A stretch of 18,787 bases of DNA from a virus (lineage: Duplodnaviria > Heunggongvirae > Uroviricota > Caudoviricetes). The DNA lies in IMG/VR virus record IMGVR_UViG_2778261532_000018, positions 1 through 18,787 of that record; one strand, given 5' to 3'. How positions within the stretch are numbered: position 1 is the stretch's first letter; the number at the start of each line of letters is the position of its first letter. This document shows positions 3,098-18,787 of this stretch, in pieces. The position numbers and the translations under genes are program-made. The notes under the pieces are model-generated. The model worked only from the letters and a program-made list of their open reading frames with translations, did no database searches and had not been told where the DNA came from.

Positions 3098-3099
3098 AA

Positions 3100-3187: not shown

Positions 3188-3676
3188 CTATGCTACATGT
3201 TTAATTTTCTCTACACGTTTCCGGTTTTTAAACGCACTATCCAGAACCGGGCAAATCATAAACAACGAGGCATTAAGGATTTCGTCAACTTCCCGTCGAC
3301 AGGTTGCGAGCGATGGTTTTTGAATGCGCCCGCCGCCACGGCATAACATCTTGCGAGGTCTTGCGACGCGATGATAGTAAGATGCAATGGCGTGCTTGGA
3401 AGAACCATGAGCGTAGTAGCTGAGGAGGATGCCAAAGGCTTTCTTGTCAATGCACATGACGGAATCGACGACCTGAGAAATCAACATTCCATCATCATCA
3501 TTGCACATTGGCCTTGTCATAACTCTTCCCGGCTCTACGCTCTCCATGAACTTCGCTATTACGCTGCTCATACGCTTTTCCAGACGACCTGAATAAACCC
3601 ATGCGCCCCACAGTTCAAGCCAGCCATTCAGCCACTCATGCTGTTCTTTGGTGAGGTTTAGTTCTCTTATGCCCAC
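3188..3676 (-). CDS. Q: Late-gene antiterminator Q (non-lambda Q family, phage 82/21/933W-like)
   Basis: 162-aa ORF directly upstream of the late promoter/tRNA/S region; unrelated to lambda Q but resembles Q proteins of other lambdoid phages as I recall them. Confidence 0.7.
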
Positions 3677-5478: not shown

Positions 5479-5647
5479 CGTCTTCTTCCTCGTACATTGA
5501 GCTATTCGGATCGCTCATCAGTTCTGCGCAGCAATCGGAGCACACGTGAACTTCCAGCACATGCAGCTTCTGACCGCAGTTAGCGCACGTTAAAGCTCGC
5601 TCGACGCTTTCTTTCTGGTATTGAAGGGATTGGGATTGGCTAAGCAT
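5471..5647 (-). CDS. ninF: NinF
   Basis: Product from [36 protein letters not shown]... matches lambda NinF as I recall it; start chosen at the internal ATG 5647. Confidence 0.8.
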   Translation of the reverse strand: MLSQSQSLQYQKESVERALTCANCGQKLHVLEVHVCSDCCAELMSDPNSSMYEEEDDG

Positions 5648-6047
5648 GGATTTCACCATTAAAAAGTCGCTTGTAAGCATCAATGTCTCGTTTTGCTTCA
5701 CCGAGCTTTCGTCTTAATTCCATGTTTTCTGATTCAAGCTTTTCCATGTCTTGTTGGTATCGATCGCGGTGTTCTTTCCATGCTTTTTGATACGCCTTCA
5801 TGTATGTCGTATTGGCCTTTCTCTTTGCCTGACGAACCGCATGGTGGTTTTTCACAAACCAGTCAGGGTCGTTAAATGCTGCTCTGGCGCAGGTATACCA
5901 ATAATTTGTTGCCTCCCTGTTTAGCCAATAAATACTGATAAATGGCAACCGGATAGACACCATTTTTCGTTGTGACTCTTTCTCGCCAAACATGTGTCCT
6001 TTTTTGATGCTAAGGCCAAATCCAGGTTGAATTAAAAGCATTGTCAT
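5640..6047 (-). CDS. Hypothetical nin-region protein (slot between ninE and ninF, where P22-like phages carry ninX)
   Basis: 135-aa ORF whose ATG overlaps the ninE stop (ATGA); charged, probably coiled-coil C-terminus; no lambda counterpart recalled. Confidence 0.5.
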
Positions 6048-6220
6048 TTCCTCGCACGTTCTCTAAGCCACCGGATATCCCACAGGTGAGCCGTGTAGTT
6101 GAAGGTTTTTACGTCAGATTCTTTTGGGATTGGCTTGCGTTTATTTCTGGAGCGTTTCGTTGGAAGGTATTTGCAGTTTTCGCAGATGATGTCGGTGATA
6201 CTTCGTCGCTGTCGTCTCAT
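6044..6220 (-). CDS. ninE: NinE
   Basis: Manually translated 58-aa ORF, below the 60-aa cutoff of the ORF track: [58 protein letters not shown]; ATGA overlaps on both sides. Confidence 0.7.
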
Positions 6221-7062
6221 GACGCATCCTCAAAATTAAATCCAAGCTGACATGAAAATGCTTCACATGATTCAGAACACGAACCTGAATCATACTGTCG
6301 CATTGATGTCATTCTTGAGGCTAACTCATCTCTTGATATATCACTAAACAAGGCAATCAGTGATTTAAGTGTATTATTCCCTCGATACATAACCGGTTCC
6401 TTTCCTGTTTTTATTTCTGTATCAAGGATGTTGATAAATGCATCTGCAAGTTCTGGCTCATCCATGGCTGCCAGCGCCACCTTTTGCATACTTTTTTTTA
6501 TGCAGAAAACACAATTACCAAGATGCTCCTGTATGCCAAGATCAAACTTCTGCTCACTCCACCAATCAAGCACATCCTGTTTTTCAAAATCGCTTATATC
6601 AGCCAGGTACCGAAAACCATTAGCCCTTTTAAGCCTGTTTGGTTCATCTGTGCGAATGCCAAGCCATGTGATGTAATTTCCTTTCCCAAACTTTTCCTGA
6701 CAATATTTGGTGAATGGAACAGACTTCATTCTGTCGGTACAGAACGCACCGCCGATATATGGATGTCCGTATTTATTCAACATCCTTTTCCACGGTATAA
6801 GATCTGGACCAATATCATTGACACCTATCTCTTCATAACTACTGGCCTTCCCCATTTCTGGATTAGGTATTACACGAAGGCAATGTAAGTCTATTTTCCA
6901 GTTACTGACGATATTTCGGATGAACTCATATGTTTTAGGGTGCTCTGCCCCTGTATCCATGAAAACGTAATGCACGTCTTCACCTGCCTGTCGCTTTTGC
7001 TCCATTAGCCAGAGCAAATATGCTGACGTCCTGCCACCTGAGAAACTAACGACATTTATCAT
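6217..7062 (-). CDS. ninC: NinC (PAPS-reductase-like protein)
   Basis: Product from [24 protein letters not shown]... matches lambda NinC as I recall it; start at internal ATG 7062 overlapping the methyltransferase stop, not the extended track start 7152. Confidence 0.85.
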
Positions 7063-7586
7063 GCAGCCCTCCTGACACCCTGCCCGATCGCCATCAATGC
7101 CGCTTTGGATACGGTAGTAAACATCCGTCGAGGACTGATGAACGGTCGCCAAATCAGCAGCATGGAGCCTTTGCTGTTTCCCTTCTTCTCCAGCCCCGTC
7201 GATGGTTCGATAAAATTAATCCGTCCATCAGTGATAATACGAACTTCGTCAACACTCTCCAGAGCCTTGCTGAACCATCCGACAGACATATCCTCTGGCA
7301 CAAGCATCACTACCGTCTGTCGTTGTTGTATGCACTGCTCAGCGGCTTTTTCCACCCACGGCCTGATATTGCTGTACGGTGGGTTATTCCAGATTGCACC
7401 GTGGCTTACCCACTCAGAATTGAGCGCGTCGTCGGCCTCAGTTAGCCAGTGAGCACACAGAGCATTTTTGTCGCTCGCTGCCGAATCCAGCCAGAATCCA
7501 AACTCAATATCCAGTGCATCAAAAAGCCAAAGCGGCGTTTGCCAGCAGTCCTTGTCGTGTGCTGGCGTATTTGATTTGATAGTCAT
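7059..7586 (-). CDS. Phage DNA N6-adenine methyltransferase (Dam-like)
   Basis: 176-aa product from MTIKSNTPAHDKDCWQTPLWLFDALD... with NPPY catalytic motif (IWNNPPYSN); ATGA overlaps with ninB stop and ninC start. Confidence 0.7.
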   Translation of the reverse strand: MTIKSNTPAHDKDCWQTPLWLFDALDIEFGFWLDSAASDKNALCAHWLTEADDALNSEWVSHGAIWNNPPYSNIRPWVEKAAEQCIQQRQTVVMLVPEDMSVGWFSKALESVDEVRIITDGRINFIEPSTGLEKKGNSKGSMLLIWRPFISPRRMFTTVSKAALMAIGQGVRRAA

Positions 7587-8023
7587 GCAGCCCGATCTCC
7601 CCATCTCGCTTTCCACTCCAGAGCCAGTCTCGCTTCGTCTGACCACTTAACGCCACGCTCTGTACCGAATGCCTGTATAAGCTCTAATAGCTCCGCAAAT
7701 TCGCCTACACGCATCCTGCTGGTTGACTGGCCTATTACCACAAAGCCATTCCCGGCAAGGTTAGGAACAACATCCTGCTGCTTTAATGCTGCGGTAAACA
7801 CACACTTCCAGCTTTCTGCATCCAGCCAGCGACCATGCCATTCAACCTGACGAGAGACGTCACCAAGGCAAGCCCAAAGCTTTCGGTTTTGGTCTAAGCT
7901 GCGGTTGCGTTCCTGAATGGTTACTACGATTGGTTTGGTTGGGTCTGGAAGAATTTGCTGTACTGCGTGAATAGCGTTTTGCTGATGTGCTGGAGATCGA
8001 ATTTCAAAGGTTAGTTTTTTCAT
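7583..8023 (-). CDS. ninB: NinB recombination protein
   Basis: Product from MKKLTFEIRSPAHQQNAIHAVQQILPDPTKPIVVTIQERNRSLDQNRKLWACLGDVSRQVEWHGRWL... matches lambda NinB as I recall it. Confidence 0.9.
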   Translation of the reverse strand: MKKLTFEIRSPAHQQNAIHAVQQILPDPTKPIVVTIQERNRSLDQNRKLWACLGDVSRQVEWHGRWLDAESWKCVFTAALKQQDVVPNLAGNGFVVIGQSTSRMRVGEFAELLELIQAFGTERGVKWSDEARLALEWKARWGDRAA

Positions 8024-8037
8024 GACTTCCCTCTCCC

Positions 8038-8071
8038 CCAAATAAAAAGGCCTGCGATTACCAGCAGGCCT
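8038..8071 (-). terminator. Intrinsic terminator between ren and ninB (tR2-like position)
   Basis: Minus strand: AGGCCTGC-TGGTAATC-GCAGGCCT followed by TTTTTATTT. Confidence 0.65.
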
Positions 8072-8096
8072 GTTATTAGCTCAGTGATGTAGATGG

Positions 8097-8387
8097 TCAT
8101 CTTTTAACTCCATATACCGCCAATACCCGTTTCATCGCGGCACTCTGGCGACACTCCTTAAAAATCAGGTTCGTGCTCATCTTTCCTTCCCGTTCTTCCC
8201 TGGTAGCAAACCGGTAATACACCGTTCGCCAGACCTTACCTTCGATAACCAGAAGACCTGCCCGTGCCATTTTAGCCGCGGCCTGATTTATGCTGGTTAC
8301 TGTTGCGCCTGTTAGCGCGGCAACGTCCGGCGCACAGAAGCTATTATGCGTCCCCAGGTAATGAATAATTGCCTCTTTGCCCGTCAT
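8097..8387 (-). CDS. ren: Ren
   Basis: 96-aa product MTGKEAIIHYLGTHNSFCAPDVAALTGATVTSINQAAAKMARAG... matches lambda Ren as I recall it. Confidence 0.9.
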   Translation of the reverse strand: MTGKEAIIHYLGTHNSFCAPDVAALTGATVTSINQAAAKMARAGLLVIEGKVWRTVYYRFATREEREGKMSTNLIFKECRQSAAMKRVLAVYGVKR

Positions 8388-9085
8388 ACACTTGCTCCTT
8401 TCAGTCCGAACTTAGCTTTGAGTTCTGCGATCTTCGCCAGAGCCTGTGCACGATTTAGAGGTCTACCGCCCATGACAGGAAGTTGTTTTACTGGTTCAGG
8501 GATCGCCTCACCACGGTTAATTCTCGCAGTCATATGGACAAGCTCATCTGCGGCCTTACGGCGTAATTCCGCATCAGTAAGCGCATTGGCCCGCATGTTC
8601 TGATACAGGTTGGTAACCAGCCAGTAGTGCGCGTTTGATTTCCACGGATAAGACTCCGCATCCGGATACAGGCCTCGCTTCCGGCAATACTCGTAAACCA
8701 TATCAACCAGCTCGCTGACGTTTGGCAGTCCGGCGATAACGGATGCTTCTTCCCGGCACCATGCAACAAACTGCCCGGGTGATGGCAGAAATGGTCGATT
8801 CTGCCGACGGGCTACGCGCATTCCTGCGTTAACCTGTTCCATTGTGGTGATCCCGTTTTCCCGGAAAGCCAGCACCCACTGGCGGCGGATTTCGTTCAGT
8901 TCGTTCTGGTCCCGGTTAGCCAGGCTCGCCGGGAAAGTTGCCAGTAACTGGCTGAACACACCATTGATGATCTGCGCTACCTGTTGTACCTGCGGCTTTT
9001 CGTCGTACTGTTCCGGCATGTTGTTGGCGATCCGACGCATCTGCTCACGGTCAAAGTTAACCATCTGTGCGGCGATGTTTTTCAT
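8384..9085 (-). CDS. P: Replication protein P (DnaB helicase loader)
   Basis: 233-aa product MKNIAAQMVNFDREQMRRIANNMPEQYDEKPQVQQVAQIING... matches lambda P as I recall it. Confidence 0.95.
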   Translation of the reverse strand: MKNIAAQMVNFDREQMRRIANNMPEQYDEKPQVQQVAQIINGVFSQLLATFPASLANRDQNELNEIRRQWVLAFRENGITTMEQVNAGMRVARRQNRPFLPSPGQFVAWCREEASVIAGLPNVSELVDMVYEYCRKRGLYPDAESYPWKSNAHYWLVTNLYQNMRANALTDAELRRKAADELVHMTARINRGEAIPEPVKQLPVMGGRPLNRAQALAKIAELKAKFGLKGASV

Positions 9086-9981
9086 AGATCCACCCCGTAA
9101 ATCCAGTCTGTGTTTGTCAGGTCGAGTTTTGGTTTGCTGGCTATCACGCCTGCCTGTTGCTTGTTACGGTTGATTTCGAGTTGGGTCCACTTATCGCGGA
9201 GTTTGGCCGGGCTCAGCACGTTACCGGACCAGAAGTTGTCCTGGCAGGCCCAGCGGAAAAGCACACACATATCGCGGTGGTTACGTCCGTCACGTTCACG
9301 CATCAGGCGGATATCGTTAGCCCACCCAGCAAAATTCGGTTTTCTGGCTGATGGCGCGATGGTCTTCACCATGTCAAACATCCACTCTGCGGCGGTCAGG
9401 TCTTCTGCTGTTCCCCACTTGCTGCCGCTCTGAATTGCAGCATCCGGTTTAACCACAGAAAGATCGTTTTCTGGCTGGTCAGAGGATTCGCCAGAATTCT
9501 CTGACGAATAATCTTTTCTTTTTTCTTTTGTATTAGTGTCTTTTGTGTTCCCCTGTTTTGAGGGATAGCAATCCCCCAATTTGAGGGATGTTTTATCCCT
9601 CGTTTTAGGGGGTTTTCCCTCGTTTTGAGGGATACACCATTCTGAGATGTTTTTATTTGGTCCAAACATGCCGCCTTGCTGCTTGATAATATTCATTCTG
9701 ACGAGTTCTAACTTGGCTTCATTGCACCGTTTAACAGGTAACTTTGTAATCTCGCTAAGTTGAGAATCGGTGATTCTGTCCATTGGTTTATTCCACCCAT
9801 AGGTTTTACGCAGAATGGCAAGCAGCACTTTAAACTGTCGCTTGGTCAGATCTGCGCCTGAATAAGCCTCAAGCAGCATATTTGATAGTCTGGCGTAACC
9901 ATCATCGAGATCTGCCACATTACGCTCCTGTCCGGCAAAGTTACCTCGGCCGAAGTTGAGTATTTTTGCTGTATTTGTCAT
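9082..9981 (-). CDS. O: Replication initiator O
   Basis: 299-aa product MTNTAKILNFGRGNFAGQERNVADLDDGYARLSNMLLEAYSGADLTKRQFK... matches lambda O; contains the ori iterons. Confidence 0.95.
   Translation of the reverse strand: MTNTAKILNFGRGNFAGQERNVADLDDGYARLSNMLLEAYSGADLTKRQFKVLLAILRKTYGWNKPMDRITDSQLSEITKLPVKRCNEAKLELVRMNIIKQQGGMFGPNKNISEWCIPQNEGKPPKTRDKTSLKLGDCYPSKQGNTKDTNTKEKRKDYSSENSGESSDQPENDLSVVKPDAAIQSGSKWGTAEDLTAAEWMFDMVKTIAPSARKPNFAGWANDIRLMRERDGRNHRDMCVLFRWACQDNFWSGNVLSPAKLRDKWTQLEINRNKQQAGVIASKPKLDLTNTDWIYGVDL
9495..9635. repeat. ori-lambda: four ~18-bp iterons (9550-9634) plus adjacent AT-rich region (about 9495-9545) inside O
   Basis: Four copies of a TCCCTC-N6-GAGGGA type inverted motif at ~22-bp spacing, flanked by an A/T-rich stretch. 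Confidence 0.85.
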
Positions 9982-9984
9982 AAT
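9956..9984 (+). promoter_or_regulatory. pO promoter for OOP RNA
   Basis: -35 TTGAGT (9956-9961), 17-bp spacer, -10 CATAAT (9979-9984). Confidence 0.6.
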
Positions 9985-9991
9985 GACTCCT

Positions 9992-10068
9992 GTTGATAGA
10001 TCCAGTAATGACCTCAGAATTCCATCTGGATTTGTTCAGAACGCTCGGTTGCCGCCGGGCGTTTTTTA
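9992..10068 (+). ncRNA. oop: OOP antisense RNA ending in the lambda t0 terminator
   Basis: Sequence from GTTGATAGATCCAGTAATGACC to GCCGCCGGGCGTTTTTT matches the lambda oop/t0 region as I recall it; overlaps the 3' end of cII on the opposite strand. Confidence 0.8.
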
Positions 10069-10310
10069 TTGGTGAGTCCATCAAGCGCATACTTAAAAGC
10101 CCTGCTAATCGGACTGATGTCTGATGCCATTCCGAAAGCACACAAGACCGAAGCAATAAATCTCCAGTCCGTTCTGCTTATCTTCGATTCATGACAGCCA
10201 ATCATCTTTGCCAAACCGCGCTGTGTAAGCGTTGACAGGTTGATGAGTAAATCTGTTTCTGCGCGATCAACGTCGCGCTGTGATAGTTTGCTGTAACTTG
10301 TTTGTTCCAT
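10014..10310 (-). CDS. cII: CII-type lysogeny activator (P22 c1-like N-terminal part, lambda CII-like C-terminus)
   Basis: 98-aa product; the C-terminal TNKKRPAATERSEQIQMEF matches lambda CII, the N-terminal two thirds does not. Confidence 0.8.
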   Translation of the reverse strand: MEQTSYSKLSQRDVDRAETDLLINLSTLTQRGLAKMIGCHESKISRTDWRFIASVLCAFGMASDISPISRAFKYALDGLTNKKRPAATERSEQIQMEF

Positions 10311-10324
10311 TTCTTACTATTTCC

Positions 10325-10366
10325 ATAGGTAAATAATCACTAATACTCATCTTTCGATGAGTGATT
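10325..10366 (-). terminator. Candidate tR1 hairpin between nutR and cII
   Basis: Minus strand AATCACTCATC-GAAA-GATGAGT...AGTGATT nested hairpin followed by a moderately T-rich tail. Confidence 0.4.
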
Positions 10367-10374
10367 AATTAGTT

Positions 10375-10410
10375 ACCGCGTTGTCGGCGGTGCAGATTGA
10401 TAAAGAGCGG
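10375..10410 (-). promoter_or_regulatory. nutR (boxA plus P22-type boxB)
   Basis: Minus strand boxA CGCTCTTTA (10401-10409), then boxB ACCGCCGACAACGCGGT (10375-10391), directly after the cro stop. Confidence 0.65.
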
Positions 10411-10419
10411 ATCCGCTTA

Positions 10420-10635
10420 TTAAGCGGTTTTGTGTTCCGGTGGGAACACGTCATCAAGACTGACTTTTGCGCCTAACTTGTTTAGGCACGCAACAAGAGC
10501 ACGGCATGTTTTAAGGTCTGGGAAGCGACGACCAGATTCCCAATGTCCGATAGCTCCCTGTGTGCATCCAACCGCCTTAGCAAGTGTTGTTTGAGAGATA
10601 TTCAGTGACTCTCGATATTTTCGTAGGTTGCTCAT
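10420..10635 (-). CDS. cro: Cro-like repressor (HTH), heterologous immunity
   Basis: 71-aa product MSNLRKYRESLNISQTTLAKAVGCTQGAIGHWESGRR... with HTH; ATG at 10635 preceded by GGAGGG; divergent from cI across an operator region. Confidence 0.8.
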   Translation of the reverse strand: MSNLRKYRESLNISQTTLAKAVGCTQGAIGHWESGRRFPDLKTCRALVACLNKLGAKVSLDDVFPPEHKTA

Positions 10636-10752
10636 ATGCCCTCCATAGTAACCATGAAACAATAATACGATATGTACTTTTGGAATGCAAACAAAAAATA
10701 CATCTTGTGCATGGATGGTTTTAGTACAGAGCGTAATAATAAGGATATGAAA
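10636..10752. promoter_or_regulatory. OR region with divergent PR and PRM and operator-like 13-bp motifs
   Basis: PR on minus strand: -35 TTGCAT (10685-10690), 17-bp spacer, -10 TATTAT (10662-10667). Motif copies ATACGATATGTAC (10665-10677) and GTACAGAGCGTAA (10724-10736) overlap the PR -10 and a putative PRM -10 (TAATAA 10734-10739). Confidence 0.6.
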
Positions 10753-11406
10753 ATGAAATGGTATGAACTGGCTAGATCCAGAATGAAAGAACTCGGCATA
10801 ACTCAAGAGAAGTTAGCTGAAGAGCTTGGTATGACGCAGGGTGGAATTGGTCACTGGTTGCGCGGATCTCGTCATCCATCTCTTGACGAGATTGGTATGG
10901 TGTTTAAATACCTTGGTATTGATAACGTCTCGTTCAACCACGACGGTACATTTTCACCTGTTGGCGAATACTCATCTGCCCCCGTTAAAAAACAATATGA
11001 GTACCCTGTTTTTTCTCATGTTCAGGCCGGGATGTTCTCGCCTGAGATTAGAACCTTTACCAAAGGTGATGCGGAGAGATGGGTAAGCACAACCAAAAAA
11101 GCCAGTGATTCTGCATTCTGGCTTGAGGTTGAAGGCAACTCAATGACAGCGCCGGCAGGATTGAAACCAAGTTTTCCTGATGGAATGTTAATCTTGGTTG
11201 ACCCTGAACAACCTGTTGATCCTGGTGATTTCTGTATCGCTAGACTTGGTGGTGATGAATTCACATTCAAAAAACTGATCAAAGATAGTGGGCAAGTGTT
11301 TTTGCAACCACTCAACCCGCAGTTTCCAATCATCCCATGCAATGAGAACTGCAACATTGTAGGCAAGGTTATCGCCAGTCAATGGCCTGAAGAGACGTTT
11401 GGGTGA
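10753..11406 (+). CDS. cI: CI repressor (heterologous HTH N-domain fused to lambda-type S24 autocleavage C-domain)
   Basis: C-terminal ~130 aa from [17 protein letters not shown]... to [12 protein letters not shown] match lambda CI as I recall it; N-terminus is different. Start 10753 preferred for SD spacing (alternative ATG 10747; track ORF starts at 10672). Confidence 0.9.
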
Positions 11407-11472
11407 TATATGTGAAATGCATATATTGATATAAATGCAGCAATATCAAATAGTTAAAAGGTTATATTTTTA

Positions 11473-11853
11473 ATGAATGATCTTGATAAGAAAAAGTACG
11501 ACCAAGTTATTGATTCTGTGAACTTCGCCCTTAGATCGTTGTCAGAGTTATTCGAAGCCCATGGAATGCATGGGATGTATGATCTAACGAATCCAAGCCT
11601 TGATGAGCTAAAATTAGTGTTTACAAGGATGAAAAACGGTGTTGACTCTATTGCTCAAAGCTTTGAGCACATGGTAGAGACAGCAAAGGATATGGATGCC
11701 GCAAGTGCAAGCATAAATGTTATGAACATCAAACAAGGATTGATGTATGCTGAATCACTATTGCTTGCTGTAGAGAAATTAGACTATGATAAATGTGTGG
11801 AAGCAAATACGCAGATAAAAACCCACGATCTTCCACCAACCCAATGGCCTTAA
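11473..11853 (+). CDS. Hypothetical protein in the rexAB slot downstream of cI (unrecognised, AT-rich)
   Basis: 126-aa ORF, no hydrophobic segment, acidic; AAAAGG 11 nt upstream of ATG; codon usage markedly more AT-rich than neighbouring lambda-type genes. Confidence 0.6.
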   Translation: MNDLDKKKYDQVIDSVNFALRSLSELFEAHGMHGMYDLTNPSLDELKLVFTRMKNGVDSIAQSFEHMVETAKDMDAASASINVMNIKQGLMYAESLLLAVEKLDYDKCVEANTQIKTHDLPPTQWP

Positions 11854-11922
11854 TAGTAAATCAAGATTTCATATAGTCTATTTGAACTAGGCTAGTACCA
11901 TAAAATAAACCGAGGAAACGCA

Positions 11923-12024
11923 ATGAAAACCATGTCCACTCTGCACAAAGATGCAATGACCCTGAGATCTCTCATTAACGAGATTCTGGCTCGCTCGTCA
12001 GCACACACCAAAAAAGCCGCATAA
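11923..12024 (+). CDS. Small ORF (33 aa, basic) preceding the immunity-region terminator
   Basis: Manually translated: MKTMSTLHKDAMTLRSLINEILARSSAHTKKAA; GAGGAA SD 6-7 nt upstream; below the ORF-track length cutoff. Confidence 0.3.
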   Translation: MKTMSTLHKDAMTLRSLINEILARSSAHTKKAA

Positions 12025-12035
12025 TGCCTACATAA

Positions 12036-12061
12036 CCCGGCCTCAGCGCCGGGTTTTCTTT
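12036..12061 (+). terminator. Intrinsic terminator at the end of the cI-distal operon (tIMM-like position)
   Basis: CCCGGC-CTCAGC-GCCGGG followed by TTTTCTTT. Confidence 0.7.
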
Positions 12062-12199
12062 GCCTCACGATCCCCACACCTAATAACACCATAACCAATT
12101 GTATTTATTGAAAAATTGACAGATACAACTTGCTAAACAGTGCAATTCTGATCCCTCACCTACCAAACAATGTACCCCTGCAAAAAATAAATCCATAAA

Positions 12200-12273
12200 A
12201 TACAATATGTTATAAAAAACCAACAACATTTAGAACATTTTGTATTGACTAAATAAAGTACACATCGTACTAT
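12200..12273 (+). promoter_or_regulatory. OL/pL region with operator-like motifs
   Basis: -35 TTGACT (12245-12250), 17-bp spacer, -10 TACTAT (12268-12273); motif copies ATACAATATGTTA (12200-12212), a weaker copy on the opposite strand (12235-12246) and GTACACATCGTAC (12258-12270) overlapping the -10. Confidence 0.55.
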
Positions 12274-12316
12274 TTAGCCATCAGCAGGAAGCTGGAAGCC
12301 AAACGGAACAGATTGG

Positions 12317-12353
12317 CGGGCTCTTTAACTTCGATGGGGCGCTGACAAAGCGC
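12317..12353 (+). promoter_or_regulatory. nutL (boxA plus P22-type boxB)
   Basis: boxA-like GGCTCTTTAAC (12319-12329) then boxB hairpin GCGCTGACAAAGCGC (12339-12353). Confidence 0.7.
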
Positions 12354-12472
12354 AAACAGATACCAAACGAGATGGGTTTGGCGGTGATGTGAATTGCAGC
12401 TGCAACGACAGCAACCAGAAGATCAGCATCTGGCGCATCACCACCAAAGCCATTTCACATGAGGAAAACATC

Positions 12473-12781
12473 ATGACGGTAATCGTGTACGGGAAATCAA
12501 CATTCGCAGGAAATGCCAAAACTCGCCGTCATGAGCGGCGCAGAAAGCTGGCCATCGAGCGTGATTCCATCTGCAACATCATCGATTCGATCTTCGGAAC
12601 AGACAGCGAGGAACCTGTTCAGAAAGACACGAGAAAGCGTTTAAGCCTTTCTGAAAAAGCAATATCACTCGGCAACATTCGTAACCAAAATACCGACGAA
12701 TGCAGTGGAAGTATTTGCCTGCCAAACGTAGCCATTTACGCGGCAGGCTACCGGAAATCAAAACAACTGACGGCGAGGTAA
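12473..12781 (+). CDS. N: Antiterminator N (P22 gene 24-like, arginine-rich motif)
   Basis: Product from MTVIVYGKSTFAGNAKTRRHERRRKLAIERD... ; arginine-rich motif matches P22 N as I recall it; GAGGAA SD; start is the internal ATG of the track ORF. Confidence 0.85.
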   Translation: MTVIVYGKSTFAGNAKTRRHERRRKLAIERDSICNIIDSIFGTDSEEPVQKDTRKRLSLSEKAISLGNIRNQNTDECSGSICLPNVAIYAAGYRKSKQLTAR

Positions 12782-12783
12782 TT

Positions 12784-13200
12784 ATGGATTTAAGTAAATT
12801 AGAAAGCTCCTTGGAAGCATCAGTAAAAAATTTTATATCAGTAATTGATGAAAAAACTGAAGATATTAAGAAAGCAACTATTGCAGAACTTATTCAAACA
12901 AGAGCCAGTACATTTGATCATCTTCCTGATGATGTCCGGTCAGCGGCAATTCATTTATATGTTACAGCGCTAAGCAATATTGAACCCCCAATTGATGAAG
13001 AATCAAGAGATATTCAGAAAAAACGGTTTGAGATGTTAGCCAGCAACATTATCGCTGGTTTCACACAACTCTTAACAAAAGAGCCTGCCAGTGAGGCTGT
13101 TCGCCAGCAGGCTCAGGTAATGATTAATCAGGCAGAAACTATTTCACGTGAGCGAAAAGCATTTGATAAATCGGTTTCTGAACTTCCAACACCTCAATAG
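12784..13200 (+). CDS. Hypothetical protein immediately downstream of N (unrecognised, AT-rich)
   Basis: 138-aa product from MDLSKLESSLEASVKNFISVIDEKTEDIKK...; ATG 2 nt after the N stop with GAGGT upstream; no hydrophobic segment. Confidence 0.55.
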   Translation: MDLSKLESSLEASVKNFISVIDEKTEDIKKATIAELIQTRASTFDHLPDDVRSAAIHLYVTALSNIEPPIDEESRDIQKKRFEMLASNIIAGFTQLLTKEPASEAVRQQAQVMINQAETISRERKAFDKSVSELPTPQ

Positions 13201-13393
13201 CAGCCGCTGAACCTTCCTTCTCAACAAACTTAATAACTTCATCAAGATGCTTTTTTGCATGTGATGATTGCTCAGGCGGCATAGCAGAAACTATCGAAAT
13301 GATTGCTTGCTGGAGCGCGAGGTTTTCAGTGCTCAGTTTTGAAACTCTGTCGTTTAAATCCTCAATGACTTTAACAAGAGATACATCTGACAT
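13139..13393 (-). CDS. Hypothetical protein, convergent with and overlapping the 3' end of the 12784-13200 gene
   Basis: 84-aa product from MSDVSLVKVIEDLNDRVSKLSTENLALQQ...; strong AAGGAG SD 5 nt upstream of the ATG at 13393. Confidence 0.45.
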   Translation of the reverse strand: MSDVSLVKVIEDLNDRVSKLSTENLALQQAIISIVSAMPPEQSSHAKKHLDEVIKFVEKEGSAAAIEVLEVQKPIYQMLFAHVK

Positions 13394-13404
13394 GTGAACT
13401 CCTT

Positions 13405-13454
13405 CTTTTGACTGTGGAAACAACAGTCTACCCATTTCCTTTGACTGTGGAAAG
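13405..13454. repeat. Two direct repeats with identical 14-bp core TTTGACTGTGGAAA (13407-13420 and 13440-13453)
   Basis: Read directly; 33-bp period; the proximal copy lies immediately upstream of the SD of the 13139-13393 gene. Confidence 0.8.
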
Positions 13455-13513
13455 TGAAGGAACCACCGAGCCTGATGTGGTTAAAAGACAGGCATACGAA
13501 TAAACACTGCACT

Positions 13514-13541
13514 GTGTATTCATTCCAACGAGTGAATACAC
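13514..13541. repeat. Perfect 9-bp inverted repeat GTGTATTCA / TGAATACAC with 10-nt spacer
   Basis: Read directly from sequence; no flanking T-run. Confidence 0.75.
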
Positions 13542-13603
13542 GGAGCAATGTCGCTCGTAACTAAACAGGAGCCGACTTGTTCTGATTATTGGAAATCTTC
13601 TTT

Positions 13604-13629
13604 GCCCTCCAGTGTGAGGGCTTTTTTAT
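13604..13629 (+). terminator. Intrinsic terminator upstream of cIII (tL-type)
   Basis: GCCCTC-CAGTGT-GAGGGC followed by TTTTTTA. Confidence 0.65.
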
Positions 13630-13690
13630 ATGCATACCAATAACGCTTCACTCGAGGCGTTTTTCGTTATGTATAAATAAGGAGCACACC

Positions 13691-13855
13691 ATGCAATATG
13701 CCATTGCAGGGTGGCCTGTTGCTGGCTGCCCTTCCGAATCTTTACTTGAACGAATCACCCGTAAATTACGTGACGGATGGAAACGCCTTATCGACATACT
13801 TAATCAGCCAGGAGTCCCAAAAAATGGATCAAACACTTATGGCTATCCAGACTAA
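13691..13855 (+). CDS. cIII: CIII (FtsH inhibitor)
   Basis: 54-aa product [54 protein letters not shown] matches lambda CIII; AAGGAG SD. Confidence 0.95.
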   Translation: MQYAIAGWPVAGCPSESLLERITRKLRDGWKRLIDILNQPGVPKNGSNTYGYPD

Positions 13856-13967
13856 ATTCACTATCGCCACTTTTATTGGCGATGAAAAGATGTTTCGTGA
13901 GGCCGTCGACGCTTATAAAAAATGGATATTAATACTGAAACTGAGATCAGGCAAAAGCATTCACTAA
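13824..13967 (+). CDS. kil: Kil (host killing/FtsZ inhibitor)
   Basis: 47-aa product [47 protein letters not shown] as in lambda; overlaps cIII end and gam start. Confidence 0.85.
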
Positions 13968-14338
13968 CCCCCTTTCCTGTTTTCCTAATCAGCCCGGCAT
14001 TTCGCGGGCGATATTTTCACAGCTATTTCAGGAGTTCAGCCATGAACGCTTATTACATTCAGGATCGTCTTGAGGCTCAGAGCTGGGCGCGTCACTACCA
14101 GCAGATCGCCCGTGAAGAGAAAGAGGCAGAACTGGCAGACGACATGGAAAAAGGTCTTCCACAGCACCTGTTTGAATCACTCTGCATCGATCATTTGCAA
14201 CGCTGCGGGGCCAGCAAAAAAGCCATTACCCGTGCGTTTGATGACGATGTTGAGTTTCAGGAGCGCATGGCAGAACACATCCGGTACATGGTTGAAACCA
14301 TTGCTCACCACCAGGTTGATATTGATTCAGAGGTATAA
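13922..14338 (+). CDS. gam: Gam (RecBCD inhibitor)
   Basis: 138-aa product [36 protein letters not shown]... matches lambda Gam. Confidence 0.95.
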
Positions 14339-14343
14339 AACGG

Positions 14344-15129
14344 ATGAGTACAGCACTCGCAACGCTGGCAGGGAAGCTGGCTGAACGTGTCGGCATGGAT
14401 TCTGTCGACCCACAGGAACTGATCACCACTCTTCGCCAGACGGCATTTAAAGGTGATGCCAGCGATGCGCAGTTCATCGCATTGTTGATCGTCGCCAACC
14501 AGTATGGCCTTAATCCGTGGACGAAAGAAATTTACGCCTTCCCTGATAAGCAGAACGGCATCGTTCCGGTGGTGGGCGTTGATGGCTGGTCCCGCATCAT
14601 CAATGAAAACCAGCAGTTTGATGGCATGGACTTTGAGCAGGACAATGAATCCTGCACATGCCGGATTTACCGCAAGGACCGTAATCATCCGATCTGCGTT
14701 ACCGAGTGGATGGATGAATGCCGCCGCGAACCATTCAAAACCCGCGAAGGCAGAGAAATTACGGGGCCGTGGCAGTCGCATCCCAAACGGATGTTACGGC
14801 ATAAAGCCATGATTCAGTGTGCCCGTCTCGCCTTCGGATTTGCGGGTATCTATGACAAGGATGAAGCCGAGCGCATTGTCGAAAATACCGCATACACTGC
14901 AGAACGTCAGCCGGAACGCGACATCACTCCGGTTAACGATGAAACCATGCAGGAGATTAACACTCTGCTGATCGCCCTGGATAAAACATGGGATGACGAC
15001 TTATTGCCGCTCTGTTCCCAGATATTTCGCCGCGACATTCGTGCATCGTCAGAACTGACACAGGACGAAGCAGTGAAAGCTCTTGGATTCCTGAAACAAA
15101 AAGCCACTGAACAGAAGGTGGCAGCATGA
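14344..15129 (+). CDS. bet: Bet (Red-beta single-strand annealing protein)
   Basis: 261-aa product [48 protein letters not shown]... matches lambda Bet. Confidence 0.95.
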
Positions 15130-15806
15130 CACCGGACATTATCCTGCAGCGTACCGGGATCGACGTGAGAGCTATCGAGCAGGGAGATGATGCGTGGCAC
15201 AAATTACGGCTCGGCGTCATCACCGCTTCAGAAGTTCACAACGTGATAGCAAAGCCCCGCTCAGGAAAGAAGTGGCCTGACATGAAAATGTCCTACTTCC
15301 ACACCCTGCTGGCTGAGGTTTGCACCGGTGTGGCTCCGGAAGTTAATGCTAAGGCGCTGGCCTGGGGAAAACAGTACGAGAACGACGCCAGAACTCTGTT
15401 TGAATTCACTTCCGGCGTGAATGTTACTGAATCCCCGATCATCTATCGCGACGAAAGTATGCGCACCGCCTGCTCTCCCGATGGTTTATGCAGTGACGGC
15501 AATGGCCTTGAGCTGAAATGCCCGTTTACCTCCCGGGATTTCATGAAGTTCCGGCTCGGTGGTTTCGAGGCCATAAAGTCGGCTTACATGGCCCAGGTGC
15601 AGTACAGCATGTGGGTGACACGAAAAGATGCCTGGTACTTTGCCAACTATGACCCGCGTATGAAGCGTGAAGGACTGCATTATGTCGTGGTTGAGCGGGA
15701 TGAAAAGTACATGGCGAGTTTTGACGAGATGGTGCCGGAGTTCATCGAAAAAATGGACGAGGCACTGGCTGAAATTGGTTTTGTATTTGGGGAGCAATGG
15801 CGATGA
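15126..15806 (+). CDS. exo: Exo (lambda 5'-3' exonuclease)
   Basis: 226-aa product [50 protein letters not shown]... matches lambda Exo. Confidence 0.95.
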
Positions 15807-15985
15807 CGCATCCTCACGATAATATCCGGGTAGGCGCGATCACTTTCGTCTACTCCGTTACAAAGCGAGGCTGGGTATTTCCCGGCCTTTCTGTTATCAG
15901 AAATCCACTGAAAGCACAGCGGCTGGCTGAGAAGATAAATAATAAACGGGAGGCGGTATGCACAAAGCATCTCCTGTTGAGTTAA
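15797..15985 (+). CDS. Lambda orf60a-like protein
   Basis: 62-aa product containing [48 protein letters not shown]...; matches the lambda orf60a product as I recall it. Confidence 0.75.
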
Positions 15986-16143
15986 GAACGAGTATTGAGA
16001 TGGCACATAGCCTTGCTCAAATTGGAGTCAGGTTTGTGCCAATACCAGTAGAAACAAACGAAGAATTTCATACGTTAGCCACATCCCTTTCACAAAAGCT
16101 GGAAATGATGGTGGCGAAAGCAGAAGCAGATGAGAGAGACTAG
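15958..16143 (+). CDS. Lambda orf63-like protein
   Basis: 61-aa product [61 protein letters not shown]. Confidence 0.75.
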   Translation: MHKASPVELRTSIEMAHSLAQIGVRFVPIPVETNEEFHTLATSLSQKLEMMVAKAEADERD

Positions 16144-16159
16144 GTATGACAACCACTGA

Positions 16160-16441
16160 ATGCATTTTCCTGGCAGCGGGCTTCATATTCTGTGTGCTTA
16201 TGCTTGCCGACATGGGGCTTGTTCAGTGACACCTCAGCAAGAAAACGCCCTTCGCAGCATTGCCCGTCAGGCTAATTCTGAAATCAAAAAAGCCAGACAG
16301 CAGTTTCCGGATAAAAACGTCGATGACATTTGCCGTAGCGTACTGAAGAAGCACCGCGAAACGGTAACGCTGATGGGATTCACACCGACTCATTTAAGCC
16401 TGGCAATCGGCATGTTAAACGGCGTTTTTAAGGAACGGTGA
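16160..16441 (+). CDS. Hypothetical protein at the lambda orf61 position (start uncertain)
   Basis: 93-aa track ORF; a 27-codon hydrophobic ORF (16146-16229, MTTTECIFLAAGFIFCVLMLADMGLVQ) overlaps its 5' part in another frame, so the true start or frame is unresolved. Confidence 0.45.
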   Translation: MHFPGSGLHILCAYACRHGACSVTPQQENALRSIARQANSEIKKARQQFPDKNVDDICRSVLKKHRETVTLMGFTPTHLSLAIGMLNGVFKER

Positions 16442-16539
16442 ACATGAAAAGCAAAATCATCAGGGAGCTACAGGCTCCTTTTTTATTATTCGCATTCACC
16501 CTCAAGCGTATTAACCAACAATTCAGGGATTAATGAAAG

Positions 16540-16761
16540 ATGGCAGACATCATTGATTCAGCATCAGAAATTGAAGAATTACAGCGCAACACAGCAATAA
16601 AAATGCGCCGCCTGAACCACCAGGCTATATCTGCCACTTATTGTTGTGAGTGTGGCGATCCGATAGATGAACGAAGACGCCTGGCCGTTCAGGGTTGTCG
16701 GACTTGTGCAAGTTGCCAGGAAGATCTGGAGCTTATCAGTAAACAGAGAGGTTCGAAGTGA
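16540..16761 (+). CDS. TraR/DksA-family C4 zinc-finger protein
   Basis: 73-aa product with CCECGDPIDERRRLAVQGCRTCASC four-cysteine motif typical of phage TraR-like proteins. Confidence 0.7.
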   Translation: MADIIDSASEIEELQRNTAIKMRRLNHQAISATYCCECGDPIDERRRLAVQGCRTCASCQEDLELISKQRGSK

Positions 16762-17441
16762 GCGAAATTAACTCTCAGGCACTGCGGGCCAAGGCAGAAA
16801 AAGCAACGTGTGGTGAGTGGTCGCTCGAATATGGAGAGAGCCGATTTGATGGTGATGATGCGCTAATTCATCGTGAAGTTGCTGGATATATTCCTATTTG
16901 CAGAATTGAAGGAGCGCATCCAGAAAGCGGTTTCGATGAAGATTTCCAAATGGAACAGCAGGCCAATGCTGAATTCATCGCCGCAGCCAATCCCGCTACC
17001 GTCTTGGCGCTGCTGGATGAGCTGGAAAGAAACCAGCAATACATCAAACGCCGCGACCAGGAGAACGAGGATATTGCGCTTACGGTTGGGAAGCTGAGAG
17101 TTGAGCTTGAGGAGACAAAATCAAAACTCAACGAGCAGCGTGAGTATTACGAAGGCGTTATCTCGGATGGGAGTAAGCGCATTGCTGAACTGGAAAGCAA
17201 CGAAGTCCATGAAGACGGAAATCAGTTTCTTGTTGTTCGCCACCCCGGGAAATCTCCGGTAATCAAGCACTGCACTGGTGACCTGGAAGAGTTTCTGCGG
17301 AAGTTAATCGAACAAGACCCGTTAGTAACTATCGACATCATTACGCATCGCTATTACGGGATTGGCGGTCAATGGGTTCAGGATGCAGTTGAGTATCTGC
17401 ATATGATGTCTGACGCTGGCATTCGCATCAAAGGAGAGTGA
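16758..17441 (+). CDS. Ea22-family protein (lambda Ea22-like, divergent N-terminal region)
   Basis: 227-aa product; MSEINSQALRAKAEKA start and C-terminal ~150 aa (QQYIKRRDQENEDIALTVGKLRVELEE...HMMSDAGIRIKGE) match lambda Ea22 as I recall it. Confidence 0.75.
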   Translation: MSEINSQALRAKAEKATCGEWSLEYGESRFDGDDALIHREVAGYIPICRIEGAHPESGFDEDFQMEQQANAEFIAAANPATVLALLDELERNQQYIKRRDQENEDIALTVGKLRVELEETKSKLNEQREYYEGVISDGSKRIAELESNEVHEDGNQFLVVRHPGKSPVIKHCTGDLEEFLRKLIEQDPLVTIDIITHRYYGIGGQWVQDAVEYLHMMSDAGIRIKGE

Positions 17442-17442
17442 T

Positions 17443-17925
17443 ATGAGCGCTATAACCAAAGAACGTATCGAATTATTCATTAAAAATCCGCTCGATAACG
17501 GACTTACCCGTGGCGAACAAATGGAACTGGCACGAATTGCACTGGCATCGCTGGAAGCAGAGCCGGTGGTGTGGAAGGTAACATTCACGCAAATTGACCG
17601 TGAATATAACACGTTCACTGGTATGTATTCTGACAAAGCAGAAGTCGAACGGTGGCTGCGGCTGCATAAAGCATGTAATTTTCGGGCAGATATAACACCG
17701 CTTTATACCGCCAAGCCAGTGCCGGTAACTCCGGATGGTTGGATAAGCTGTAGTGAGCGAATGCCCGCTCAAGATGATTGGATTTTAATTTATTCAAAGC
17801 ACGGTGAGTATATGGCAGGACAGGTGCAAGGGGAATACGTGGAGTTGAGCGACGGCACTTTATCGTGGTTAGGGAACGCCTTGCTCTGGATGCCGCTACC
17901 AGAAACGCCGCAGGAGGTGAAGTGA
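17443..17925 (+). CDS. DUF551-like prophage protein
   Basis: 160-aa ORF, C-terminal region (WISCSERMPAQDDWILIYSKHGEY...) resembles DUF551 domains common in the early-left regions of lambdoid prophages. Confidence 0.55.
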   Translation: MSAITKERIELFIKNPLDNGLTRGEQMELARIALASLEAEPVVWKVTFTQIDREYNTFTGMYSDKAEVERWLRLHKACNFRADITPLYTAKPVPVTPDGWISCSERMPAQDDWILIYSKHGEYMAGQVQGEYVELSDGTLSWLGNALLWMPLPETPQEVK

Positions 17926-18197
17926 TGGACTCCTTCGCGAAATATACGATTATTGACTGGATAGCATTCCTTCAGGTTTTGCTCATCTGGTTTTATATGG
18001 CTTACAGGAGTGGACAGTGGATTGTCAGTGTAGCCTATAGCAAGGGATGGCGTTGGTGGAACCGAAAGAATAAAAAAACACTGGCCTTGGATTCGTTTTA
18101 CGAAGCATTCAATCTTAACAGTCTTCAGCCTGGTTCTGTCGTTGTAGTCACCACTCAAAGCGTCATGATCATTCAGATTCATAAACCAAAAGAGTAA
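17925..18197 (+). CDS. Small predicted membrane protein (one hydrophobic helix)
   Basis: 90-aa product from MDSFAKYTIIDWIAFLQVLLIWFYMAY...; strong CAGGAGG SD; ATG overlaps the upstream stop (TGATG). Confidence 0.5.
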   Translation: MDSFAKYTIIDWIAFLQVLLIWFYMAYRSGQWIVSVAYSKGWRWWNRKNKKTLALDSFYEAFNLNSLQPGSVVVVTTQSVMIIQIHKPKE

Positions 18198-18199
18198 AA

Positions 18200-18289
18200 A
18201 TGATGTGGCCTATATGTGTTAATTGCGGACGGATGTGCCTATCTGGATGGTGCCGAAAGTGCGACAAATGCACGAAGAAAAGACAATAA
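18200..18289 (+). CDS. Small cysteine-rich peptide (29 aa, 7 Cys)
   Basis: Manually translated MMWPICVNCGRMCLSGWCRKCDKCTKKRQ; starts 3 nt after the upstream stop; weak SD; below ORF-track cutoff. Confidence 0.3.
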   Translation: MMWPICVNCGRMCLSGWCRKCDKCTKKRQ

Positions 18290-18518
18290 CAATCCTCGCA
18301 CTCGCGGGGATTTCTTTTATCTGAACTCACTACGGCGAGTTTTGTTTTATGGAGATGATAAATGCACTTCCGAGTCACAGGTGAATAGAATGGAGAACCA
18401 TTCAACAGAGTTATCGAAGCAGAGAACATCAACGACTGCTATGACCACTGGATGATATGGGTGCAGATAGCACATGCAGACGTAACCAATATTTGTATTG
18501 AAGAACTGAAAGAACACC

Positions 18519-18543
18519 AAGCCGCCTGATGGCGGTTTTTTAT
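18519..18543 (+). terminator. Intrinsic terminator upstream of the excisionase-like gene
   Basis: GCCGCC-TGAT-GGCGG followed by TTTTTTATT. Confidence 0.65.
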
Positions 18544-18586
18544 TACCTGATTTGCAGGTTCGATTCCCTATTCGGAGATAGCACTC

Positions 18587-18787
18587 ATGCAACACGAACT
18601 ACAGCCTGATTCACTGGTTGATTTGAAATTCATCATGGCCGATACTGGCTTCGGTAAAACCTTCATCTATGACCGGATTAAGTCCGGCGACCTGCCAAAA
18701 GCCAAAGTTATCCACGGGCGAGCAAGATGGTTATATCGTGACCATTGTGAATTCAAAAATAAGCTCTTAAGCCGCGCCAATGGGTAA
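18587..18787 (+). CDS. Excisionase-like DNA-binding protein (not lambda Xis), at window edge
   Basis: 66-aa ORF with GGAGA SD at the position where xis precedes int in lambdoid phages; sequence differs from lambda Xis; stop codon is the last three bases of the window. Confidence 0.5.
   Translation: MQHELQPDSLVDLKFIMADTGFGKTFIYDRIKSGDLPKAKVIHGRARWLYRDHCEFKNKLLSRANG

Follow-up and report, generated by a model that had tools for sequence, protein, structure and literature searches.

Which role does a small gene play that is read against the early-left operon of a lambdoid prophage and whose 3' end overlaps that of the gene facing it? The question is raised by ORF84 and ORF138, two open reading frames (ORFs) located between the N antiterminator gene and cIII in a window of 18,787 nucleotides (nt), i.e., the whole stretch of DNA analysed here (positions 1 to 18,787 of the IMG/VR virus record IMGVR_UViG_2778261532_000018, Caudoviricetes). 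The window (18.8 kb) covers a lambdoid prophage early region and is 100% identical to Escherichia coli PEC41 (NZ_CM168023.1), where both products are labelled as hypothetical proteins by the Prokaryotic Genome Annotation Pipeline (PGAP). A preliminary description of this DNA had listed the two ORFs as a convergent pair, regarded their layout as unusual and suggested a self-regulated accessory module. The best explanation found here, with a probability estimated at about 0.6, is that ORF84 is the cargo of an autonomous accessory cassette (moron) in the sieB slot, and that the overlap with ORF138 is incidental. The layout is a sieB-type arrangement with an uncharacterised cargo family, the upstream early gene being fused into the cassette.

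The features that carry this reading are the following (positions in the window):

13139-13393, - strand: ORF84, 84 aa; ATG at 13393, stop codon at 13141-13139; cargo of the cassette
12784-13200, + strand: ORF138, 138 aa; ATG 2 nt past the N stop codon, Shine-Dalgarno sequence GAGG inside the final codons of N
13139-13200, both strands: 3' overlap of ORF138 and ORF84, 62 bp; second codon positions of ORF138 lie opposite wobble positions of ORF84
About 13074-13494, - strand: ORF84 cassette (promoter, gene, terminator), about 420 bp
13407-13453, - strand: predicted PsieB-type sigma-70 promoter and leader, from the alignment with the annotated P22 PsieB and the conservation of TAnnnT
13453-13440, - strand: direct repeat 1, TTTCCACAGTCAAA; its first six bases are the -35-like TTTCCA
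13430-13425, - strand: predicted -10 hexamer TAGACT, with a 17-nt spacer from TTTCCA
13420-13407, - strand: direct repeat 2 (14 nt), start of the 5' untranslated region
13399-13404, - strand: Shine-Dalgarno sequence of ORF84, AAGGAG, 5 nt from the ATG
13074-13114, - strand: predicted intrinsic terminator of ORF84, GAGCCUGCUGG...CUGGCAGGCUC, then CUUUUGUU; inside the coding sequence of ORF138

Position and orientation of ORF84

Transcription from pL runs along the + strand of the window, so that ORF84, on the - strand, lies antisense to it, as had been proposed; the coordinates given earlier for both ORFs, the 62-bp overlap and the Shine-Dalgarno sequence of ORF84 (read from 13404 to 13399, 5-nt spacer) were borne out as well, as was the AT-richness of ORF138 (34% GC in its core vs 46% in the whole window). 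The layout is not unusual, because a sieB gene in reverse orientation follows N immediately in both lambda and P22: lambda sieB (34482-35036, + strand) converges on N (complement 35037-35438) and directly adjoins it, and in the P22-like phages SPN9CC and P22-pbi gene 24 is followed by a backward sieB/esc. ORF84 shares with sieB the slot directly 3' of N or gene 24, the orientation against pL and the 3' end pointing toward N; sieB abuts N directly, however, whereas in the window ORF138 intervenes and overlaps ORF84. SieB is expressed from the prophage and halts macromolecular synthesis, aborting superinfecting related phages (PMC10461980). Compared with lambda, the window has retained the flanks of this region but not sieB, ral/orf28 and ea10, the collinear segments being 13460-13494 (lambda 34430-34396), 13498-13632 (34056-33920) and 13632-13900 (33522-33254).

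Promoter, leader and terminator

The promoter of sieB is annotated in AF527608.1 (P22-pbi) as 'P sieB' with the sequence TGTACCCCTACAGCGAGAAATCGGATAAACT, in which TAAACT is the 3' end of the annotated feature. In a five-way alignment the same columns hold TAAACT in P22 and lambda, TAGACT in the window and TATATT in Salmonella phage MS2 LVA; T, A, A and T are invariant in the -10 columns, and all five sequences show a direct repeat over the -35 region with a second copy just 3' of the -10 region. PsieB itself was reportedly mapped with the help of RNase protection and of a double mutant in the -10 region (Ranade and Poteete, in 1993). The ORF84 promoter would thus be of the same build as that of sieB of P22 and lambda (35-nt element, -35 repeat, 17-nt spacer, TAnnnT and leader repeat), from which sieB is expressed in the prophage; the two differ in the repeats, which are of the ACCCCTACAG type in P22 (L141, about 940-975; related loci are designated by numbers with the prefix L) and lambda (34436-34475) and of the TTTCCACAGTCAA type in the window (13440-13453 and 13407-13420). 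All sieB-type promoters seen carry a direct repeat of 10-14 nt over the -35 region and just past the -10 region. A literature text search with the repeat sequence gave nothing relevant among the matches listed.

The pattern CTTTCCACAGTCAA-N20-24-TCCACAGTCAA was found in at least 120 IMG/VR contigs. Among 43 spacer variants, the hexamer 17 nt past TTTCCA is always TAnnnT (including TATATT, TATGTT, TACGTT, TAGACT, TAATCT and TACTCT) and is often preceded by TG (TGn extended -10). Hardly any variation is seen in the promoter and leader of L012 and L015, despite an identity of 72-81% in the ORF84 coding sequence. These data point to an ORF84 promoter homologous in architecture to PsieB and predicted to be active; an independent promoter, which the preliminary description had asked for, is therefore very probable from the PsieB-like upstream region. 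Transcription is likely to start at about 13415-13421. An upstream in-frame ATG at 13435 was rejected as the start codon of ORF84, because it overlaps the -10 hexamer. In L005, 33 bp between the repeats, including the -10 hexamer, are deleted, apparently by recombination between the repeats.

The terminator consists of an 11-bp hairpin (13114-13081) followed by CUUUUGUU, which ends at 13074. It is kept in L012, L015, L063 and L086/L094, with compensatory arms: GAGCCUGCUGG/CUGGCAGGCUC in the window vs GCCUGUU/AACAGGC plus UUUUUAUCUUUU in L086. Homology to L015 and L016 stops right past the terminator, and in L012-type loci it extends about 55 nt past it, to the start of a small antisense ORF. 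Promoter, gene and terminator together are therefore regarded as a cassette of about 420 bp.

The moron concept for lambdoid phages is said to go back to Juhala et al. (2000), and gp15 of HK97 reportedly is an example (Cumby et al., in 2012). As in other lambdoid morons, a single extra gene with its own predicted promoter and terminator is inserted in an operon, its distribution among relatives is patchy (presence/absence polymorphism with homology blocks of cassette size), its GC content is below that of the surroundings, and expression from the repressed prophage is presumed. Classical morons, however, are mostly found in the late or tail region and are co-oriented, whereas the ORF84 cassette is anti-oriented and occupies a site where promoter and leader are fixed and conserved and numerous unrelated cargos are exchanged behind them.

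ORF84 and its product

Homologous DNA was obtained from E. coli, Escherichia albertii, Logan assemblies and Trabulsiella, with nucleotide identities down to 72%. Outside the overlap, the variable sites of ORF84 at codon positions 1, 2 and 3 number 21, 8 and 44, respectively, and the pairwise ratio of nonsynonymous to synonymous substitution rates (dN/dS) is 0.04-0.25 for loci down to 72% nucleotide identity, with dS being saturated in distant pairs. Judged from this codon pattern, ORF84 is a real gene under purifying selection. A profile search of 1.84 billion cluster representatives yielded eight true relatives, all of 84-87 aa, which share E-N-x-A-L...M-P-x-E-Q...Q-K-x-x-F/Y-x-x-hydrophobic-F-x-x-V-K down to 29-37% identity; longer matches in this search were rejected as repetitive coiled coils. 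In a 90%-identity database ORF84 is called as a gene in 12 clusters. Among 5,426 complete E. coli genomes six carry it, one of them with IS1203 inserted in the gene, and 50,697 phage records contain no copy; a close-alignment scan of species-representative genomes found it in a single species, Trabulsiella guamensis.

The product is acidic (pI 5.5), predicted to be soluble and all-helical, and belongs to a narrow family of 84-87 aa. The highest Kyte-Doolittle value of a 19-residue window is 1.02, so there is no membrane segment, which is likewise lacking in ORF138, also acidic. Pfam and NCBIfam gave nothing for either ORF except sub-threshold coiled-coil noise; PADLOC yielded no family for either and no match to a described toxin, antitoxin or defence model; PHROGs had no match for ORF84 and nothing above noise for ORF138, and a sequence search of the PDB with both alignments was without match. 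AlphaFold2 models are all-helical with low confidence (predicted local distance difference test (pLDDT) 67 for ORF84 and 62 for ORF138), and that of ORF84, with a heptad-like N-terminal helix, had no match in the PDB with Foldseek at E<1. The remote homology search and structure prediction that had been suggested for both proteins thus assigned ORF84 to no known family or confident fold, and the earlier statement that neither product is recognisable held.

SieB is a membrane-associated protein with hydrophobic or membrane segments and roughly 185-190 aa. The SieB proteins compared here have 184-192 aa, whereas ORF84 with its 84 aa is soluble, acidic and unrelated: hhalign against lambda SieB gave a probability of 0.3%, and Pfam gave no hit. 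ORF84 thus resembles the sieB locus in position, orientation and a predicted promoter homologous to PsieB, and differs from the SieB protein family in homology, size and membrane segments. It also has no in-frame Esc start, unlike sieB/esc of P22.

PGAP skips the intact ORF84 in L002 (2418-2672), L003 (2440-2694) and L005 (1850-2104), where the facing ORF has 150 aa and the overlap is 98 nt, and annotates it solely in PEC41, where the overlap is 62 nt; its absence is an annotation artefact of the overlap rules, arising when the facing ORF is 12 codons longer. In E. coli Z1323CEC0019 (L006, about 2078-3386) the insertion sequence IS1203 (IS3 family) splits ORF84 near codon 9, providing a natural knockout.

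Exchangeable cargo behind the same promoter

The same promoter and leader front at least ten unrelated families of 54-136 aa in the at least 120 IMG/VR contigs (loci L019-L138), and nearly all of these cargos are read against the genes next to them. One of them is characterised by N-P-x-x-A-A-Q-Q (54-67 aa, phrog_27767) and clearly includes the backward gene of L004 and, by eye, probably that of L007, although the two show no detectable mutual similarity; neither the 54-aa gene of L004 nor the 60-aa gene of L007 was accepted as a homologue of ORF84, as no significant similarity was found. Further cargos are a 69-aa family (phrog_25023), Zn-ribbon proteins, the ORF84 family and a family of about 92 aa (phrog_8894; L026, L052, L046 and others; MARYIVRVEL..., MAMFIVRVEL...), which passes the Pfam threshold for GhoS (22.7 vs 21 bits). 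GhoS is a type V antitoxin endoribonuclease.

The ORF content of the flanks on both sides is biased three-fold to the opposite strand, 75 of 114 loci being anti-oriented on both sides. In 98 of 107 loci an opposite-strand ORF of at least 50 aa, some of these ORFs probably being spurious, abuts or overlaps the 3' end of the cargo. The unrelated cargos behind one promoter and the anti-oriented flanks are therefore taken to represent a conserved expression socket with exchangeable cargo. In L012, the ORF84 homologue has a neighbour of 233 aa (4785-5486, - strand) with a signal-peptide-like N-terminus, followed by a strong bidirectional terminator; this gene may be a second accessory cassette.

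ORF138, a composite early gene

ORF138 can be divided into three parts:

12784-12909, + strand: residues 1-42, N-terminal extension in common with the 97-aa post-N protein of L004
12910-13074, + strand: residues 43-97, phrog_9419-like small early-protein domain (F-x-x-L-P ... A-G-F-x-x-L)
13075-13200, + strand: residues 98-138 and stop codon, read-through tail, encoded opposite the ORF84 terminator and the 20 final codons of that gene

The core (first 93 codons) shows a dN/dS of 0.2-0.6. The L004 homologue occupies the same position with 32% identity (hhalign E=1.3e-4). In most relatives the phrog_9419-like domain is a stand-alone protein of about 50 aa (M-K-F-E-E-L-P...V-Q...A-A...V-R-x-A-F-x-x-L-Y, corresponding to phrog_9419 and related PHROGs), which ends where the domain of ORF138 ends. 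Against an 11-member alignment of this family, hhalign yielded E=8e-5 for ORF138 (residues 43-108) and E=1e-8 for the L004 homologue, which matched phrog_9419 itself with E=0.004; phrog_9419 was absent from the matches at E<=1 in a direct hmmscan with ORF138, membership being a matter of profile-profile and transitive evidence. Compared with this family, which aligns with residues 43-97, ORF138 has in addition the 42-aa N-terminal extension and the 41-aa read-through tail. Backward cargo has a phrog_9419-like member as its convergent neighbour in 45 of 105 loci, and this member mostly terminates 0-29 nt inside the cargo; as an obligatory partner or repeat-binding regulator it was rejected, since no more than these 45 loci have it and it is absent from L012 and L015.

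Relatives sharing the MDL start occur in three lengths (99, 138 and 150 aa). The 99-aa form (...AGF|AKLTCC vs ...AGF|TQLLTKEP) departs from the long forms precisely at the border of the ORF84 terminator; in L007 it faces a different backward gene of 60 aa. In the tail, T-K-E-P-A-S-E-A-V-R-Q-Q-A is encoded antisense to the terminator. The tail is 12 codons longer in relatives, with CAA-TAG in the 138-aa form vs CAA-CCG in the 150-aa form, a difference that is Ala-synonymous plus Val/Ile in ORF84. In L015 and L016 the tail is fused to an unrelated N-terminus.

ORF84 and ORF138 are not a pair in the sense of the preliminary description: ORF84 is found without ORF138 in L012 (a Rac-like prophage), L142 (Trabulsiella) and L015, the ORF138 core is found with other backward genes in L007 and L004, and the stretch of ORF138 that overlaps ORF84 is a tail joined to it through read-through.

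The 62-bp overlap

Within the overlap the third codon positions of ORF84 still vary most (24 sites vs 10 and 9), and dN/dS amounts to about 0.5-1.5 for the tail frame and about 0.1-0.8 for ORF84, being lowest in the most divergent pairs. When the ORF84 protein was held fixed and its synonymous codons were permuted, 20% of the shuffles kept the antisense frame free of stop codons over 62 nt or more (p=0.20), with 2-46% across lineages. The length of the overlap is not above chance.

The 35-nt structured element

Next to the promoter lies a structured element that relates the locus to the sas RNA of P22:

13460-13494, + strand (pL direction): 35-nt structured element; two interleaved helices, AACCAC/GUGGUU and GCCUG/CAGGC, and an A-rich loop

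Read on the - strand (13494-13460) its sequence is TGCCTGTCTTTTAACCACATCAGGCTCGGTGGTTC. It is identical to lambda 34396-34430 at 35 of 35 positions and matches the 3' part of P22 sas RNA at 34 of 35. In P22, sas RNA is antisense to sieB (PMC7067206, PMC12197685). The published sequence, as given in Table 2 of PMC13397905, reads as the reverse complement of the following succession: the initial coding bases of sieB, the leader, both ACCCCTACAG repeats, PsieB and the 35-mer ending ...GAACCACCGAGCCUGACGUGGUUAAAAGACAGGCACAAUCUUU...; by this placement of the tabulated sequence on P22, the element forms the 3' portion of sas, read along pL. In P22 the element is flanked on its 3' side by ACAAUCUUU, which is replaced in the window.

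The helices are supported across 25 distinct variants, with alternatives such as CCACG/CGUGG, CCAUG/CAUGG, GCCGGG/CCCGGC and GCUGGG/CCCAGC. The proportion of paired cells is 85% vs at most 43% with the partners slid, six of the 12 pairs change on both sides, and the covariation score was reached by none of 500 shuffles; covariation counting was used because the total of interleaved base pairs, compared with mononucleotide shuffles, was uninformative (10.8 vs 9.3 bp). G.U pairs occur in the pL direction alone, and the loop lengths (1-3 nt, then an A-rich loop of 5-9 nt) fit an H-type pseudoknot in that direction alone, which is suggestive of the + strand RNA being the functional strand. Alternative hairpins are just as possible as an H-type pseudoknot. 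A function as terminator in either direction was rejected, as no U-tract follows the element.

Proposed mechanism and alternative explanations

In a lysogen with pL repressed, ORF84 would give rise to a transcript of its own, of about 350 nt. ORF138 would be the first pL gene after N and a small early protein of phrog_9419 type; its frame would have lost the natural stop codon at the cassette junction and would continue on the strand opposite ORF84, across its terminator and 62 bp of its coding sequence, to the first chance stop codon, which would make the overlap a side effect of mosaic joining. When the prophage is induced or a cell is infected, pL transcription antiterminated by N would meet the cassette head-on, and its crossing would silence ORF84 by promoter occlusion or polymerase collision, plus antisense pairing, by analogy with sieB/sas of P22. 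As with sas, an RNA in the pL direction would be antisense to the 5' region of the gene; the complementary RNA would cover the whole ORF84 mRNA, including leader and start codon. The suggested self-regulated module does not stand in the sense of two co-evolved genes; in a narrower sense it is possible, i.e., as control by pL antisense RNA or collision as in sieB/sas, perhaps with a small antisense-encoded partner peptide. OOP and cII of lambda offer a further example of convergent transcription with a 3'-end overlap in an N-antiterminated early operon, the transcripts being complementary over tens of nt. OOP, however, is a non-coding RNA of 77 nt, whereas both partners in the window are protein-coding and the backward transcript carries the main gene. 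OOP is mentioned in PMC7067206.

Most likely, ORF84 provides a prophage-expressed function that benefits the lysogen, the exclusion of other phages being the leading guess from its position only; SieB is the only characterised example at this site, and the sequence of ORF84 neither supports nor contradicts such a role.

Several observations weigh against the cassette reading. The promoter agrees with the consensus at just 8 of 12 positions, for which reason it was not listed by a simple consensus scan, and the fold energy of the terminator, taken alone, is not separable from shuffles (z=-1.0). In contrast to P22 sas, no sas promoter is recognisable in the window: by eye, none of this type was seen in 13330-13392 (+ strand), and no hexamer pair with TAnnnT. 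The exclusion role is read from the position of a protein that is unrelated to SieB, has no membrane segment and no PADLOC hit, and whose model has a pLDDT of 67. The tail frame occurs as a free-standing ORF of 56-64 aa in L012, L142, L063, the L019 group and L086/L094, i.e., at ORF84 identities down to about 35-55%; it has its own Shine-Dalgarno sequence (GAGAGG/GGGG) and ATG, in most cases ATGAAT, just beyond the terminator, and runs antisense over the terminator and 95-131 nt of the 3' end of ORF84 (e.g., L012, 4161-4331, - strand). Finally, in comparisons with L015 the overlapping part of ORF84 shows a dS reduced 3-5 times, and a raised dN, relative to the part upstream of it, which is the pattern expected under dual constraint.

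The last two points belong to an explanation in which ORF84 is joined by the antisense tail ORF in a true two-component module resembling sieB/esc, with a prophage-expressed effector and an early antidote, expressed from pL, that protects the phage's own lytic growth; the overlap would then be selected, as it keeps both inseparable. The antidote would be free-standing in the relatives and fused to the phrog_9419-like domain here. Such a module gains from the recurrence of the small ORF with its own start signals in several divergent lineages, from the conservation of about 55 nt upstream of its ATG in four of these, from a tail frame that is open in every lineage and in three N-terminal contexts, and from per-lineage shuffle p-values that, combined by hand (Fisher), reach about 0.05. 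It is nevertheless unlikely. Openness is unremarkable in most lineages taken singly (p=0.2-0.46), and dN/dS is about 0.5-1.5 in the tail frame and about 0.5 to >1 in the non-overlapping part of the small ORF between close pairs. The lineage of the window has lost 12 C-terminal codons via changes that ORF84 tolerates, the position of the stop codon shifting between lineages; the conserved peptide K-x-P-A-S...I-R-Q-Q-A corresponds to the two arms of the terminator hairpin and changes with compensatory changes of these arms, and the same ORF138 core faces a different backward gene in L007. It is rather unlikely that the tail or the small ORF is a functional partner of ORF84; such a partnership is what still stands of the module suggested in the preliminary description.

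Improbable, and more so than the two-component module, is a role of ORF84 as a small regulator or host-modulating factor (e.g., a coiled coil tuning lysogeny maintenance, induction or host physiology) that uses the constitutive sieB-type site. A small, acidic, soluble protein with a heptad-like N-terminal helix that resembles no known defence protein in PADLOC would suit this role, and the many unrelated small proteins behind the same promoter, including Zn-ribbon and GhoS-like ones, suggest heterogeneous functions; yet nothing points to a regulatory target, and family and fold searches detected no DNA-binding fold in ORF84. Hypervariable cargo at a fixed prophage-expressed site is, in morons and prophage hotspots, the usual pattern of phage-phage conflict genes. 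This hotspot pattern has been described for P2/P4, not for lambdoid phages (PMC9122126). Finally, ORF84 could have arisen by chance or be in decay, with neither transcript nor protein product, the + strand gene alone being of importance, which would agree with its omission by PGAP in L002, L003 and L005, the IS1203 insertion in one locus and the loss of 33 bp between the promoter repeats in another. This is highly improbable, given the codon pattern of 21/8/44, the dN/dS of 0.04-0.25 with saturated dS, the conservation of Shine-Dalgarno sequence, promoter and terminator, the length of 84-87 aa and the C-terminal motif Q-K-x-x-F/Y-x-x-hydrophobic-F-x-x-V-K kept to 29-37% identity, and the gene calls in 12 clusters together with eight relatives among the 1.84 billion representatives.

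Neighbouring features

The genes around the cassette are those of a lambdoid early-left region:

10711-11406: cI-like repressor
11473-11853, + strand: ORF of 126 aa between the cI-like repressor and N
12474-12781, + strand: N antiterminator gene with a P22-type arginine-rich motif, GNAKTRRHERRRKLAIER; sets the direction of pL
13692-13855, + strand: cIII, followed by kil, gam, bet and exo

The 126-aa ORF occupies the position of rexAB in lambda and matches phrog_16322, the function of which is not known, over its full length (E=8e-89); Pfam and PADLOC gave no match. It is probably a further accessory gene expressed from the prophage. In Rfam, the sole match of the window is the cIII thermoregulator RF01804 (13678-13736, 88.5 bits). 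Between the cassette and cIII lie an inverted repeat, GTGTATTCA-N10-TGAATACAC, and two terminator-like hairpins on the + strand, the first of which matches lambda near 33931-33952 (features at 13514-13541, 13604-13621 and 13642-13661).

Implications

The gene pair ORF138/ORF84 itself is an ordinary product of lambdoid mosaicism. Its wider significance is that the long-known sieB site appears as a conserved expression socket and not as a one-off. The pattern CTTTCCACAGTCAA-N22-TCCACAGTCAA provides a sequence handle for candidate prophage-expressed exclusion or host-modulating genes, and its P22/lambda-type counterpart for the scanning of prophages is ACCCCTACAG-N-CCCCTACAG. A possible partner peptide, encoded antisense over a terminator, can be put to the test in the ORF84 family. 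A bolder proposition, for which the odds are rather low, is that PsieB-type promoter and leader form a general plug-in site by which lambdoid and P22-like phages of enterobacteria express dozens of unrelated, exchangeable conflict genes of the prophage from within their early-left operon, and that the ORF84 cassette is an effector/antidote pair whose antidote peptide is encoded antisense over the terminator and 3' end of the effector and expressed from pL only. If this were true, protein-level immunity, antisense RNA and transcriptional collision would all be found within about 420 bp.

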